Shown in pieces: positions 14,799 to 60,737 of a DNA stretch of 64,000 nt. The translations under genes and the position numbers were made by a program. Source of the DNA: Raja brachyura (Eukaryota); contig OY740821.1 of NCBI GenBank assembly GCA_963514005.1, forward strand, positions 14,384,001-14,448,000, in the 5' to 3' direction. Every line of letters begins with the position of its first letter. The stretch's first letter is position 1. The notes beneath the pieces are model-generated. The model did not search any database and was not told the DNA's origin. It saw only the letters and a program-made list of their open reading frames with translations.

Positions 14799-15983
<1,185 letters not shown>

Positions 15984-32276: not shown

Positions 32277-32624
32277 CTGCAGGCAATCACACAGTGCAGC
32301 TGCAAGGTTAGTCGGCAGCATTTTGATTTCCTGCCAAGACGACACTTCTTGCTGGCAAGTTTTCTCCTGCCTTCGTCTGAAGGCACCGATGGCCCGAGGG
32401 ACCCCGTTTTGTAAGCCCAGACACTGCCTATCATCCACAGCATCAGGAGCTCAACCCTGCCCCACTGTCTGTTTGCTATGGAGCGAAGGAAATAGGCAAT
32501 GTTTCGGCACGAAACGTTGTCTATTCCCTTCGCTCCATAGATGCTGCTGCACCCGCTGAGTTTCTCCAGCACTTTTGTCTACCTTCGATTTTCCAACATC
32601 TGCAGTTCCTTCTTAAACAATTCA

Positions 32625-33365
32625 TAGATCGGGGCATTGAATACGAGTCAGGAAGTCATGACCGAGCTTTGGTTCGGCTGCATTTGGAGTTTTGCGTGCA
32701 GTTCCTGTCACCCAGTTACAGGAAAGATGTGGAGCCTTTGGAGAGGGTGCAGAGAAGGTTTACCAGAATGATGCCTGGATTGTGAGGTGTTAGCTACAGG
32801 GAGAGGTTAGACAGACTTAGATTGTTTTCTCTGGAACGCCAGAGGTTGAGGGGAGTCCTGATATAAGTATATAAAATGATGAGAGGCGTAGGTAGGGTCA
32901 GCAGGCAGACTTTTCTTTTCTCTCAGGATGGAAAAAACCTCAAATATAGAGAGCATAACTCTCTAGCCCTTCAGTCTGAAGAAGGGTCTTGACCCGAAAC
33001 GTCACCCATTCCTTCTCTCCAGAGATGCTGCCTGTCCCACTGAGTTACTCCAGCATTTTATGTCTACCTTCGATTCAGACCAGCATCTGCAGTTCTTTCC
33101 TACACACAGAGAGCATAGCTTTAAGGTGAGAGGAGCAAAGTTTAAAGGAGATGTGCGGGCAAATTTTTTTTTGACACAAAGGATGGCGAGTGCCTGGAAT
33201 GCACTGCCGTGGTGGTCAGATACAATCGTGGCGTTTAGGAAACTTATGGACATGCAGGGGATGAAGGGGTGTAGATTACGTGCAGGCAATGAGTGGTCAG
33301 AGATGATCTTGGCCTCATGTTCAACACATTGTGGGCTGCAGGGCCTGTTCCTGTACTGTACCATT
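32625..33365 (+). mobile_element. CR1 LINE 3' fragment interrupted by a solo pLTR insert
   Basis: Decayed RT (..LERVQRRFTRMMPGL..., HSFKVRGAKFKGDVRANFF.TQRMASAWNALP). Confidence 0.8.
32961..33107 (+). mobile_element. Solo Penelope pLTR-derived element with an intact minimal hammerhead motif
   Basis: CTGAAGA AGGGTCTTGACCC GAAACGTC at 32976-33003, flanked by AGAGAGCATA(A/G)CT direct repeats. Confidence 0.75.
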
Positions 33366-37112: not shown

Positions 37113-37837
37113 CTGGAGCCGGATTAAAGGAGAGACGAGTTGTAATGTGCACTGGGAGTGCTCTCCTACTGTAACCAAAACAGCACTGTACTCAAAACAT
37201 TCAAGCCGCCACCAACTGCTGTTTTATCATTCAACTCGGTTTCCATTTCTTGCAACCTTTTTTCCTTTAATCCGGTCCTAGCAACTAACAAAAAAAAAAA
37301 ATCAGCTCCATTCTGACATTGAAATAAACACAGCTTAGTTCAAATTCCATTGCAAATCAGTCACAGGCTTGGATCATGAAGTCAAATTGTAATCAGTTTG
37401 CATAAAATCGGAATTCTGAAATAGATTACTGGCTGATTGGACATTTGAGTTTTCGTTTTAAACAGGCAACTTAACACATTTTGTTTCCAGACAGTTGCCA
37501 ATTAAGTATTTAGGTGCGATGCTAAGGGTGCTATGAAGGTTAGATCTTGATTTACAATTCCCAGAAAACCCACAAACCTAGATTAGATTTATTTTGCAAG
37601 GAAAAATGTAACTCATCTGGTTCTGTGTCACTCCCGGTGATACAGGATTCTCTCCAGATAGGCAAAGTGCTGGAGTAACTCAGCGGGTCAGGCGGCATCT
37701 TCCCTCCAGAGATGCCACCTGACCCGCTGAGTTACTCCAGCACTTTGTGTCTCTTTTCGGTGTAAACCAGCGTCAGCAGTTCCTTCCGACACATTCTCTC
37801 CAGTTAACTTCTGAACATCCATCAAATGTGCAAGCTA

Positions 37838-46761: not shown

Positions 46762-46806
46762 CCATTTCAGGTTGACACCCTTCAGTCTGAAGAAGGGTCC
46801 CGACCC

Positions 46807-47132
46807 AAAACATCACCTATCCATGTTCTCCACAGATGCTGCCTGACCCGCTGAGTTACTCCAGCACTCTGTGAAACGTCACCTATCCATGTTCTCCACA
46901 GATGCTGCCTGACCCGCTGAGTTACTCCAGCACTCTGTGAAACGTCACCTATCCATGTTCTCCACAGATGCTGCCTGACCCGCTGAGTTACTCCAGCACT
47001 CTGTGAAACGTCACCTATCCATGTTCTCCACAGATGCTGCCTGACCCGCAGAGTTACTCCAGCACTCTGTGAAACGTCACCTATCCATGTTCTCCACAGA
47101 TGCTGCCTGACCCGCTGAGTTACTCCAACACT
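46807..47132 (+). repeat. Tandem array of five 66-bp units derived from the pLTR
   Basis: Units start at 46807, 46873, 46939, 47005 and 47071: GAAACGTCACCTATCCATGTTCTCCACAGATGCTGCCTGACCCGCTGAGTTACTCCAGCACTCTGT. Confidence 0.95.
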
Positions 47133-47674
47133 TTATGTCTTTTTCGGGGGAGAACATATATTAGGAGGACAAGGTGAACCTGGCTGTGAAACTTTTGGCC
47201 TAATCTACACGCAGTGTCTGGACTCGTTTAGTAAACAGCAACCACTCGATCGAGGCTGCAGAAAGCAGCTGCTGGCTGTGGTCCTCTGCCAGTTAGGCAC
47301 AAGGCCTGCTGCCCTGACACTGAGCTCCAGTTTGTAAAGATTTACCGGCCCGACTCAAAATGACAAGCAGCTTAAAATATGGAGCGGCATTGTTCTGTTT
47401 TGTTTCAATAAGTTTGCATGATGTATGCACAGCACGTACTCTGAAGGGGTTGAATTTGCAAATTCACAGTCCTGGACCTCAGTCAATAAATATCAAAAGA
47501 CAGCGCCGTCCTGAAGAACTTGCTTTCTTTGGAAAATGACGGCATCTGAATTGCTGATGAGCACACTTAACAGGTGAGACCACCTTCCTACCACCACCAC
47601 AAGCTCAAAATACTGTCTATATCCGAATATTGAGCACAGGGAAGACCCATGAAGCCCATCAGGAGATTTTGTGC

Positions 47675-55027: not shown

Positions 55028-57809
55028 ATCACTCTAATCAGTCTACCCTTCCTCATGAATGGTGCCCACAACTATTCATAGTATTCCACTGGGAATATAA
55101 CCAGGGCTATGTATAAATATTGAAAAGAGACCACTGTAGTTGCCTATGTTGCAATAACTACCTTCCTTCCACATAAAACAGTTGTGAGATGTTTCTCAAC
55201 CTGGACTGGGTGCTATTATACTTGCAAATCCACTTCCTGGGTACTTATTTAATGTACTAATTCCATTTGCAGACACTTTTGTTCTCAAGCTGCTTTTCCT
55301 TGCTGTCTGTTTTTATGTGTTTTCCTCTTGTATGTTCCTTTGCAGATTTATTTGGTTCCCCTTTTGGCCGTACTACTGGCAAATGCTTCAAACTCCCTCT
55401 CGTTCCATCCCCGGCACCAACCCTCGGGCTCCTTTCAGCAGGAAAGTGGGGAAAAGAACGATTTAAAAATAGTCAAATATGGACATTTTTTTTAAAAAGG
55501 ACGGCAACTGGATACCAGAATGTTGAGACCAATGAAAGATCGCATTGCAAAATCACAATGCATGACGTGCTGCAACAGGGGTCAGACAATTCCATCTTTG
55601 CAAACAAAGCTGTGGCGTGGGGAAGAGGGACAGGGTGTAATCCAATCCGCTAATGTTTTCAGTCCAAATCTGCTTTTACCCAAAGAGGAAACATTCTCTA
55701 TTCAAACTTTGAAAGTTAATAACATCAGATAAAATCAGTCCTTTCTAGTGCATTTTTGGGAAATCACTACCATCACTCTTTTCTTCATCGCTTCCAACAG
55801 AATTTAGATTACTAATGAATTATTCATAAATTTTGTTTTACCTGCCAAAATTGAGTGGTGATTGATGGCTCCCATGGAGCAGTCATGTTGATGTATAACA
55901 CAGGAGAAACAGTGATACAGCTAGCATTGAAACCTGCACCTCTCCACAGTGATTACCTGAGCAACACAGTTATAGAGCATGAAACAGAGAGCTCGCGGGC
56001 AAGTTCTCAAGAATCATCTGGCACTTGTTCAAAACGACCAGGGGATCCTCTTTTAGATGAACCATTTTCACTTGTAGTTTCTGATCAGCATTTTTATGGA
56101 CTGCAGTGCACACACCTGCATGCAGATACCCACGAATAGATTGATACACTCCCAGACATCCATTCCGAGCACCCACACCCAAATTACAACGCAGAAAAGA
56201 GGCTATTCAATCAACCAGTGCACACCGCTGTTTACAGTATTTACTAACAGTAATCATAAATTCCACCAAATTCCTACATTTCTAATTCCTCTTTCTATCA
56301 ACTACTCTAATGATCAGTGATACTATCATAAATCATATTACAATCCAGAACTGAATGGCTGTCTTCTCGAGCTAAGATTCCCACACCTGATTGCTATCTG
56401 AACAACACTTGCTGTTAAGTGTATTTGAGTAGGTATTAATTTGAAGAATCTGTTGACACTCACTGGCATGTCTGAGGTGCCGATAGGCTGCAAGCACCTG
56501 TGAAACTGTGCCTGTGCCCTGAAACAAATGCTTGCAGGAACGAAAGTGGGCTCAAAACTGGAAGATTAAAAAAAAACATACAAAATTTCACTTTGCGGGC
56601 TTTGGATCAATATCGTGCAGAGCGCTACAAAATGTACAGTACCACAACACTCCACACACTGCTATGTTGAGCCTAATCACTTTCTTACTAATTGGGGATA
56701 GAGGAGATTTATGACGACATACAATGCAAATTAATTAAAAGAAAGTATTTTCTATCCTTATTTATTTATATTTTTTCAAATATAAATTTATGGCTCATAA
56801 ATTGCAGATCATGGTGAGACCAACAATGCTTTGTGTTCTGTCAGCACCCCCTCGCCCGCCCACCCACACCAACTTGCAAAATAAGAATGTAATCCATTTT
56901 ATGTTCTTCCTGAAAGAGACTCGGACTCAGCACTTTGGCAATTCCACTTATGCACCAGTGGCTAGCAGAAGCTGTGGGCAAAGGTCCTTCTTTGCATGTT
57001 TGAACTGATAGTAATCATCAAAAGAATTAAAAAGGGAGACTGTGACATTTTCTTTACAAAAAGGGGCTTTAGAAAGAGGAACTTTCTGTCACAAACTATT
57101 GTTGAAATGAAGTCCATTTTTTTCCCTCATATAAAGGGAATTGCTTGATAAAGAATATTAATGGAAATCGGGAGTGAGCAGGAGAGTGGGATCAGGTTAA
57201 ATGGGGAAACACAGAACTGTTTTAATCGGACAAATGGCTGCTGTCAAGACTAGACTGCTTTGCTGTCCTTCTCCATAGCATAATGATGGCATAAAAAGAC
57301 ACAGAGTTGCTGGAGTAACTCAGCAGGTCAGCCAGCATTTCTGGAGAACATGGATAGGTGATGTTTTGGGTCAGGACTCTTTCTCAGACCCGAGATGCTG
57401 CCTGACCGGCTGAGTTACTCCAGCATTTTGTGTCTTTTTTTTTTGCAATTCCTTGCATCTAAATAATGATGCCAACTGGATTGCTGGATTGCCATCTGCA
57501 TTTCAGCATCTTTGTATGGGGGAAAAACATTATTTTGTAAAAACAATACAGCACAGAAGTAAATCATGAACAAAGATCAGAAGGAGCACACAACCTGCCA
57601 AACTTTGTCCATCATTTATGAATCTAGTTGTATCAATCGCTACATACAACACAACGCAATGATCCATGTACAAGAGGAAAAGAGTAAATAGGGTAGTTTC
57701 CAAATATTATTTTGCTCCAACATGCATAAAGTAAATGTCAGCTGTTGTAAGTGGGAGCAGTCCCTTCCCAAGTGCTTCGGTGTTGACGTGTTCAACACAG
57801 ATTTGGAAG

Positions 57810-58065
57810 CATAGAGACAAAATGCTGGAGTGATTCTGCGGGTCAGGCAGCATCTCTGGAGAAAATGGATTGGTGCCATTTCGGGTCGGGAACCTTCTTC
57901 AGGTCTGAAGAAGGGTCCAGACCCAAAATGTCACCTATTCATTTTGGTCTGAAGATGGGTCCGGATCAGAAACGTCACCTATCCATTTTCTCCAGAGATG
58001 CTGCCTGATCCGCTGAGTTACTCCAGTCCTTTTGCGTAAACCAGCATCAAGAGTTTGTTGTTATT
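57810..58065. mobile_element. Inverted plus tandem pLTR element with three hammerhead-like cores
   Basis: One - strand core at about 57870-57902 and two + strand cores at 57905 and 57949. Flanked by a 13-bp direct repeat ACAGATTTGGAAG. Confidence 0.75.
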
Positions 58066-60737
58066 ACAGATTTGGAAGATCCTGGCATTAGCCTGTGTTG
58101 AGCTCACTGATCGCATTTGTAATGATGGTAATGGCCAACCTTACAATTAACACTCATGTCTCTAAGATAAGGAAAGCCACGATTCCATTCCCAGTCCAGG
58201 ATCAGATCTGGCTGAAAAGCTCATTTTGTGTCTGACTCATTGGAAAGTACTGGACTTGGCTGTGATGCCCTCCAGTGTACAATAGCTATCTGTACCTGCA
58301 TTCCCAATCAACCAGTGGTGAAAGACAGTTATAAACATTAAACTCACCCATGTAAATTGGAAGTACCAGGACCGATACCTGTCCCGTAACAGGTAAACTG
58401 ATCTCAGCCTGGGCAGCAAATGGGCACGCAAATTTGTATCAGCATCCACAGACTAGTGAGAGGGCAACCCACACTCCACTCCCACCTCTGGCTGATAGTC
58501 AGAGCCTCTTCAATATTGGAGGAGGAGAAATGTGGGTTTGGTTAAAACTTGGTTGTAATTTTCCCTCTCCACAGCCTTCTTAAACTCCACAACTGACATT
58601 ATATTAAAGAATACCTCAGTGCAAAGAAACCCACCCTCAGCCTGGGTCAGCATCTTTCAGAGACAAGTAGTGAAAGGAACTGAAAATTGAATGTATTGAT
58701 TTTGATCCGAGGCCCAATGTGAGGCTCGATCCAGCTTTGTGCAAAATCATGCTGACACGATATAGGATGAAGTCACTGGTGGTGAGTGGCTAGTGTCTGG
58801 CAGACTTAATTGGCTTCTGAAGAAGTCTGGAGAAACCTGCTCCGAAACACTAACCCGTCAGCTGTGTGAAACATTTCACACAGAAGATAGATCCATTAAA
58901 CTGTCCAAGCTTCCATAATCCACTTTTTTTACTCAAGTTTTATGTTAGAGACAGGTTTACAATTGTGCCACGATAGACATATTCACCTGTTGAATTATGC
59001 CACCGACCAAATCACTGCATTTTCTTACAGTTTTAACCGTACAGGTGAGGTGGTACTACACCTGATTTTATTTTTGTACAGCTCTCTCAAACACGCCAAG
59101 AGATTCATTCTGCTGGGATCCAGTAGCGCTATCATATCTGATATATAAAACAAGTCTGAAGAACAATATCGGGTCAGTGTTCGGAAATGAGGAGGGTCCT
59201 AACCAGATGCAATATTGTTACCATCCAAAGTAAAACTGTATAGTGATCGCAGGTCCATGTCACTTTGCAACTATTCCACCTGAGGACACCCAATACAATA
59301 CAAAACAGCGTTTGAAACTGTGATTGTTTAGTCTGCAGAGCTGGTAATGAAATAAACCTTACCTCCAAATGAAAATGTTGTAAATCATAAACATTTGATG
59401 CCAACAATTACATAGAAAATGACAAATGCAATAAAACAAGGTCTGAACACTAAGAAAGTGTGTTGGTACCAAGTTAAGTTAACTCTTTTATGAGGGAAAA
59501 AGAGACACGGGGTTAGATTTTAGAAACAAGGACCTCAGATGCTAGTTTACGCAAAAGAACACAGTCCTGGAGTAACTCAGCAGGCCAGGCAGCACCTCTA
59601 TGCCCCAAGGGGTTAGATTATTTGTTCTTCCATGGTGGCAATTTAAATCCCTGTCACATTTTGTATCATGCATTCCTGATCTCAAATTAAAGAATCAACA
59701 ATCTTATAGTACAGAATGAGGCCATTCAGTCCATCAAATCTGTGCTGGCTTGCCATTGGAGTGGTCTATTGCCATCCACTTGCTCTTGCCTCATTTACTT
59801 TTTTTTAATATATTTTTGTGCATAAAGTTTCAATTGCTTTTCAAACTTCTCTGCGACAGTAGCTACATGTGGCAAACTGTTCCACGTCCTGACAACTCGA
59901 TGTGTGCTAAGAAATTATCGCCTGAAGAAGAAAGTTAGATAACTCTGAGGCCGCGGCCCCTTCTTTACCGATTCACCAACGAGTACAAACAATATCTTCC
60001 TTTTCACTTTCCCAGAAGCTTTTAACGTCGTTCTGCCTCATGCAAATTTGCCGTGAGACCACCTGACCCCACCCCCAAAACCCTGATGACTTACTTTGTG
60101 ATTTATATAAATACTTACGTTTCGTATGGCGGCGGGCATCAGCTGCCATTTCACTATGTATATATAAATATATATATATTAGAAAACCTTCAAGTATAAA
60201 AGATTATTGCAGGGCATCCCGTTTGACATGATGTAGCAGCGTCGCGGCTTTGCAAACATGTCAAGAGGGGGCTGGCAGACAGATTGTCATCAGAACCACT
60301 TTCAATATGTTTAACTTTCATTCATTACTGCAGAACCCGGATCAACCAGTCTGAGAGGAAAATGAAAACAGCAGGGCGAAACATACTCTGTTGCATATTC
60401 CCGACCCCGAAACATGCATTTATAAATCAGAACATTTGCAGCATGTAAATCAGAAAGAAAGCCGATTTGGTTTTTGTTGTTGTTTTGACATGTCATGAAA
60501 AACTGCGCCCGTTTTTTTCCAAAATAAAATAAGACGCAGTCCACCTGCACCCAGTTAATAGTGCAGGCTGGGCACATGCAAAGATTGAAATCGCTCAGAA
60601 TTAATAATGCCGCACATACTAGACTGAAATTGAACTACAAAAAACAATCAAGGGAAGGATTATTTCCTATGCCATTGCGATCGTTACATTTATTTAGATC
60701 CGTCACCTTTACTTAAAATGATTAGGAAGAGACTGAC

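Follow-up and report, generated by a model that had tools for sequence, protein, structure and literature searches.

EN+ PLEs of the Neptune type are described as carrying a pLTR, an inverted copy at the 5′ end, an optional tail of 30–40 bp and a target-site duplication (TSD) (PMC8557442, PMC3846280). The elements analyzed here resemble them in the combination of RT, CxxC linker and C-terminal GIY-YIG domain, in the hammerhead located in the pLTR, in the inverted 5′ copies, in the tail that is often found on one end, in the TSDs and in the solo pLTRs reported for these elements. The element class, the minimal hammerhead, the tail, the inverted copies and the TSDs are already known. In contrast to the Neptune-type descriptions, most inserts found here consist of the leader only and share one fixed start, and pairs with a single tail are near-obligate. 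In the passages cited, the Neptune-type layouts are given without counts and without a link to start sites. The TSDs are 9–18 bp long here, compared to the 8–10 bp given for A. vaga.

For the Anolis Poseidon element PAc, two internal RT starts that define the tail, cutting and extension of both strands and uncut RNA as the main substrate have been reported (PMC11167929), which is similar to the picture obtained here. PAc belongs to a different clade and its ORF starts inside the hammerhead, whereas the likely ATG is placed here at about +167. As far as the cited parts of that study go, neither one start site per strand nor start-limited short inserts are proposed. The minimal type I hammerheads of metazoan PLEs (PMC4209133) share with the present unit the CUGANGA core, an unpaired base before stem II, a palindromic helix III region and a mostly single, dispersed occurrence linked to truncated PLEs. 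Unlike those, stem I has 2 bp here, and the cleavage-and-circle route outlined in that work is not seen in the insert ends. Metazoan non-LTR retrozymes (PMC7229834, bioRxiv 10.64898/2026.07.22.740005) are likewise pLTR-related, hammerhead-bearing and non-coding, with TSDs of more than 4 bp. According to the cited sections they are arranged head to tail, every unit bears a canonical hammerhead, and they are expressed as monomers in linear and circular form, whereas the inserts found here are single or head-to-head, carry a minimal core and have ends unrelated to the cut site. Finally, as described for Penelope of D. virilis (PMC2377424), the elements occur in a partial tandem, where the 3′ UTR of one copy would provide the promoter for the copy downstream of it, and an Inr-like start is located in the pLTR. 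None of the papers in the literature listings and passages covered here describes leader inserts limited by a start or the use of one start site per strand.

The window, a stretch of 64,000 nucleotides of Raja brachyura (contig OY740821.1, positions 14,384,001 to 14,448,000), contains 28 stretches related to the unit under study. The host genome has a size of 2.7 Gb, of which an unbiased sample of 100 evenly spaced 10-kb stretches (1.0 Mb) was analyzed together with the window. In this material 352 element clusters were identified, of which 322 were scored for flanking repeats; the 30 left out had at least five pieces or lay less than 120 bp from an edge. Positions within the unit are counted from the G two bases ahead of the hammerhead CUGA, which is position 0 and corresponds to position 32974 of the window. 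The predicted hammerhead cut lies at +29/+30 (33003|33004). The inserts are TSD-flanked copies of the hammerhead-bearing end segment of a Neptune-type PLE. They were probably made by an RT that starts internally at +95 or +133 of the element's uncut mRNA and reaches the end of the template at the inferred transcription start, just ahead of the hammerhead.

The focal insert is located on the forward strand inside a fragment of a CR1-like repeat, assigned to CR1 by its protein motif. Its left TSD (32948..32960) is identical to the right TSD (33108..33120) over 10 bp and agrees in 12 of 13 positions, and the paralogues of the host repeat carry one copy; downstream of the right TSD the host repeat resumes. 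The insert spans position 0 to S2, and its 5′ joint is a patchwork of two inverted copies. The first (32959..32965) is a filler of 7 bp that repeats the target end (32947–32953) in inverted orientation and overlaps with a looser reading of the TSD; a repair origin is suggested for it. In the second (32967..32973), the first bases of the hammerhead are repeated in inverted orientation; this short copy restores TCA before position 0 and, judged by its sequence, may be a snap-back or a remnant of a second arm. The minimal type I hammerhead motif follows at 32974..33003, with CUGAAGA at 32976–32982, stem II at 32984–32995, GAAA and a palindromic ACGU. The remaining leader (33004..33107) contains S1 near 33065–33071 and ends at S2. 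A second insert, of a sister subfamily and with a small inverted part, was found 330 bp upstream (32476–32622), where it adjoins the CR1-like fragment.

Four further inserts had been cited in the preliminary description. A three-piece head-to-head insert (57810–58065) is flanked by an exact 13-bp TSD (57797..58078; repeats at 57797/58066, 13/13). The insert at 59509..59619 on the reverse strand is a single arm from +47 to about +123 without hammerhead, with an 11-bp TSD (59509/59609, 11/11). The insert at 57280..57474 is head-to-head with a degenerate core on one arm (57280/57463, 11/12), and that at 6519..6742 is a head-to-head insert of a sister subfamily; its two arms begin at about +8/+10 and lack the CUGA core, one end is S1 and the other S2, and the TSD is 13/14 (6519/6729). 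Three of the five cited inserts (57797, 57280 and 6519) are thus head-to-head, for which no strand is assigned. The former characterization as hammerhead-bearing units inserted on their own is not confirmed, since the core is absent at 59509 and 6519 and degenerate at 57280; a single unit in which the minimal core is intact occurs only at 32948, where the 5′ junction carries the inverted filler. Two inserts not cited earlier were identified in addition, a head-to-head insert at approximately 37649..37803 (no strand assigned; 11-bp TSD) and a single arm from position 0 at approximately 9372..9480 on the forward strand (TSD 13/14).

All five direct repeats cited before were found at the coordinates given for them, and they exceed chance. 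A flanking-repeat score of at least 9 was reached by 76 of the 322 scored clusters, about 10 of them by low-complexity matches, compared to 1.6% of the mismatched flank pairs that served as control. Among 98 young single-arm copies, which were chosen by pattern, 51 carry an exact TSD of 9–17 bp, compared to 1 of 483 controls. In 15 of 15 other paralogous matches of the host repeat at 32948, a single 13-mer is present and the unit is absent at that point. In a related organism the focal site is filled, with an identical 5′ junction, and no joint skipping the 32948 insert was found among the matches listed in contigs of other organisms. For one long copy (L049), the empty form was found in reads and contigs of other organisms, where 735 bases are skipped between 14 shared letters, which indicates that long and short copies make the same type of TSD. 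The TSD counts and the single-copy paralogues of the host repeat support the earlier view that these are discrete insertions and not products of decay after insertion. In 23 of 31 young inserts of subfamily C1, which have AC-rich ends, the TSD overlaps the 3′ end of the element by 1–5 bases, which would agree with base pairing between the nicked target and the RNA.

Of the first 30 matches listed, 13 run upstream into a common sequence, which in translated long copies encodes a CxxC knuckle and a GIY-YIG domain and, farther upstream, a Penelope-type RT (motifs identified by eye). RT, CxxC linker and C-terminal GIY-YIG are combined in one ORF, as in EN+ PLEs. The assignment to Neptune is provisional and was made from the CxxC linker (PMC8557442), not from an RT tree. 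At least six subfamilies can be defined by their pyrimidine-rich UTRs, which differ from each other and all finish in YCAGT at position 0. The unit segment ends truncated long copies and also precedes the element body, as expected for a pLTR. The ORF body follows directly after the +133 end of the unit in 20 of 30 loci, by which the unit is identified as the element leader; in the tandem layout it is also the 3′ end of the preceding copy. Two loci in which the unit adjoins mid-ORF sequence (L222 and L242) were rejected as 5′ ends and are fusions or separate insertions.

Short and long copies were compared column by column. In subfamily C1 (83 short, 21 long) no column was significant, and in subfamily A (55 and 46) one of 14 columns differed at an uncorrected p of 0.007, so that no short-only variant survives correction in these small, selected sets of loci. 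Among 228 upstream flanks, 106 are unique; those found more than once consist of UTRs, inverted arms or a few other repeats. The Penelope RT/GIY-YIG source that had been postulated is present in the genome, but the separate family of small RNAs mobilized in trans is not borne out, since short and long copies have their variants in common. The short inserts are probably the leader of the ordinary element mRNA, copied in cis. An intact full-length source element was not assembled from the loci examined, which counts against this reading.

At 26 of 30 loci with the start of an ORF body (L311–L340), short unit-stub-unit derivatives with differing breakpoints were found, several of which rejoin at −1/0. 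These breakpoints and the rejoining at −1/0 suggest template jumps of the RT. In the same loci, at about +165, the likely start codon overlaps with the strong splice-donor-like word AAG|GTATGT; judged from this word, the leader could also be spliced.

The 5′ ends were tallied for the 350 arms of the unbiased sample that reach +80. Of the arms at risk, 96 of 144 stop at −7 to +2 (6.7% per base), a count that in old copies would be raised by UTR subfamilies absent from the library. At +28 to +32, around the GUC cut site, only 14 of 259 arms stop (1.1% per base), and the stop rate upstream is 0.3–0.9% per base. The pile-up has a shoulder at +3 to +12 (59 of 203 arms), which counts against the mechanism preferred here. 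An exact genome-wide search revealed 45,159 copies of the word at +1 to +29. The G at 0 is missing in 4,351 of these, the A at −1 in 9,709 of the remaining 40,808 and the C at −2 in 6,473 of the remaining 31,099. Of the first 30 listed copies with CAG, 19 go on into a UTR. About 60% of the young copies thus stop at the site at position 0 and about 40% pass it. Of 44,805 young copies, 324 have a purine immediately before +30, at the cut site, and young copies starting there amount to at most about 1.4% genome-wide; about half of 30 inspected exceptions at the cut site were point mutations. Among the matches listed in whole-genome contigs from four runs of two other organisms, 5′ loose ends were found at 32971–32974 and none at 33004. 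Random 5′ ends, by which the preliminary description would have been refuted, were not found, but the ends pile up at −7 to +2 and avoid the GUC site. This location argues that the copied RNA was uncut.

The 5′ ends fall on the purines of YCAGT, a motif that resembles the initiator consensus. Where TSD-anchored inserts contain filler, it finishes in G in 16 of 21 cases starting at 0 (31% expected) and in 7 of 13 starting at −1 (29% expected), although in about 6 of the 16 the filler repeats the first words of the element itself and is not clearly a cap copy. Such recopied first words suggest a hard end of the template. We infer from these ends that the pile-up point is a capped transcription start. 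No peak of RNA starts or ends was detected on a long copy in poly(A) reads of one other organism, 96% of which aligned only partly. Among the data sets listed as containing the unit, none is recorded as RNA. A further point against this start is the layout known from D. virilis, where transcription begins 46 nt ahead of a 75-nt intron (PMC2377424) the end of which meets the hammerhead (PMC4209133); the start proposed here adjoins the hammerhead, 2–3 nt ahead of the core, which is not the known layout. A splice acceptor (pyrimidine tract and CAG) was considered as the source of the ends and rejected, since both purines at −1/0 (A and G) persist in many short copies and the 228 upstream flanks have no exon of at least 30 bp in common.

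The 3′ ends of the inserts fall into two classes, S1 at about +91 to +97 and S2 at about +125 to +133, and the sequence of about 35 bp between them is the tail. Long copies mostly end near +91 to +97 or +128 to +135, the same as short copies, and S1 and S2 are the presumptive RT start sites. In the 352 clusters, 69 head-to-head arrangements were found compared to 2 tail-to-tail, so that both the optional tail of 30–40 bp and the inverted 5′ copies of EN+ PLEs are present. Among 54 isolated head-to-head pairs of the unbiased sample, 30 of the 33 classifiable ones have one S1 and one S2 arm, compared to about 49% expected from single arms (91 S1, 70 S2, 36 other), with the caveat that an end was unclassifiable in the other 21 pairs. 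The proportion is 55 of 62 over all loci examined and 30 of 30 at an identity of at least 88%.

That each arm has its own start site in 30 of 33 pairs suggests priming by both nicked strands. Since both strands are extended in vitro (PMC11167929), twin priming with one site each would be the simplest reading. A tail on one end only is known and has been ascribed, in the cited passages, to endonuclease resolution or self-priming (PMC8557442, PMC3846280). Against one site per strand stands that, in the part of PMC11167929 considered here, no strand difference in the RT start was seen in vitro.

In the mechanism preferred here, the GIY-YIG domain would nick both strands about 9–17 bp apart, which would give rise to the TSD. 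Transcription would begin within the initiator-like YCAGT, at its A or G, and be driven by the 3′ UTR of an upstream copy as promoter, and the leader would hence stand at the start of every element mRNA. Priming on this leader would yield inserts of 95 or 133 nt, whereas the ordinary 5′-truncated long copies would arise where a tandem is transcribed by read-through and the RT primes on its downstream copy. Where both nicked strands prime, one at S1 and the other at S2, a head-to-head insert with one tail would result. The 5′ joints would be closed via microhomology or templated filler, and the frequent G would fit copying of a cap. By analogy with the anole element, in which the minimal RNA reaches beyond the RT start, short inserts would be unable to move again once inserted. 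Put together, a dimeric RT-endonuclease may nick both strands and prime each of them on the same capped, uncut leader, at +95 and +133. The hammerhead would then lie at the 5′ end of the mRNA and be uncut in the transposed RNA, and hundreds of thousands of SINE-like inserts of fixed length would arise without a non-autonomous master. This joint reading is put forward tentatively, as a serious possibility.

The main rival keeps the same element and the uncut template and explains the fixed 5′ end as a preferred site of RT stop or resolution on a longer RNA, at the near-palindrome TCAG-T-CTGA around +1, the hammerhead fold or a bound protein. Many head-to-head joints do center on the near-palindrome, and the inner break of the further-reaching arm lies at 0–9 in 72 of 98 pairs, where breaks farther upstream also score as the unit library begins at 0. 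The continuation upstream in about 40% of the young copies that reach position 0 indicates templates that span the site, and self-priming at such palindromes has been proposed in the cited part of PMC3846280. However, TSD-flanked single arms without an inverted arm stop at the same point, a template with a hard end would account for the excess of G at the junctions and for the first bases copied with slippage, and the stop rate inside the pyrimidine-rich UTR is low. A stop on a longer RNA is therefore considered unlikely, though it is to be taken seriously.

Less probable still is that short or internally deleted copies with an internal promoter act as SINE-like masters, the uncut short RNAs of which are mobilized in trans by the Penelope protein. 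Inserts from −1/0 retain everything past the start, and in the cited section of PMC2377424 downstream promoter elements are described for Penelope. The short unit-stub-unit derivatives at 26 of 30 body-start loci and the identical junction of +87 to +22 at two loci would also fit, and putatively non-autonomous PLE derivatives are mentioned in the cited part of PMC8557442. Against such masters, the sequence variants are common to short and long copies, the upstream flank is unique in 106 of 228 cases and the breakpoints differ among the deleted derivatives. A lineage of its own with diagnostic variants, as in a SINE-like family, was absent from the small, selected samples.

The units had previously been interpreted as retrozyme-like, that is as small self-cleaved or circular RNAs inserted by the Penelope machinery. 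This is highly improbable: only 14 of 259 arms and 324 of 44,805 copies have their end at the cut site, which is background level, and the sequence 5′ of it is kept in most inserts. The TSDs are real, and the focal unit and most subfamily consensuses contain the core, stem II, GAAA and a palindromic NUH junction. Yet stem I has 2 bp and helix III is missing in the monomer, so that the canonical helices I–III are not formed. An Rfam scan gave nothing at gathering score, the hammerhead fold was absent from predicted MFE folds of the monomer, and no cleavage was obtained with a single minimal hammerhead in the experiments cited from PMC4209133. An alternative cut at −2|−1 was rejected by reasoning, as the triplet is unpaired with GAAAC and an NUH is missing at that point from the young subfamily.

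Among 136 hammerhead cores, 5 cases of same-strand cores less than 400 bp apart were found, with irregular spacing, and no head-to-tail array of complete units. Two features of retrozymes were thus absent, namely unit boundaries at the cleavage site and head-to-tail repeats in which two or more successive units each have a complete hammerhead. The arrays that were observed repeat +22 to +87, +35 to +87 or +30 to +89 and lack the CUGA core. One of them (L364–L366, C2:55272484–55272635), with three 61-bp head-to-tail repeats each starting from the cut site at +30, is the sole such array and would favor a retrozyme, as would the proposal of pLTR-derived animal retrozymes in the cited portion of bioRxiv 10.64898/2026.07.22.740005. 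The retrozyme reading fails on these data and is largely refuted at the DNA level. Ordinary random 5′ truncation or decay of long copies, the least credible source of the units, accounts for a minority, given ends of about 1% per base along the unit and the insert at 59509 (+47), and is refuted as the main source by the six- to twenty-fold excess of stops at −7 to +2 and by TSDs that directly adjoin short units.

The inserts are dead fragments of a known class of retroelements, and their value is that of a natural experiment on the mechanism of insertion. The fixed 5′ end and the rule of one S1 and one S2 arm bear on how PLEs make tails and inverted ends, and the insert ends argue against hammerhead cleavage or circles at the insertion step. 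Furthermore, what a homology-based count records as "monomeric retrozymes" may be cDNAs of the leader from ordinary elements.

Minisatellites of unit fragments were also found. In the window, 66-bp repeats at 46778–47144 join +87 to +22, a junction that recurs once at another locus (L090), and at a third locus (L046) 54-bp repeats join +87 to +35. These minisatellites lack the CUGA core and are therefore not retrozymes. In the poly(A) reads, the endonuclease region of the long copy L049 (7074–7352) had 2–3-fold more first mates on the sense strand of the element, which would correspond to an excess of antisense RNA if the library was stranded as usual. On the forward strand of the window, an open frame of 394 residues (14799–15983) was identified, the start of which matches the EPLIN LIM domain (E 2.7e-15); going by this match, it is presumably the last exon of a LIMA1/EPLIN gene.
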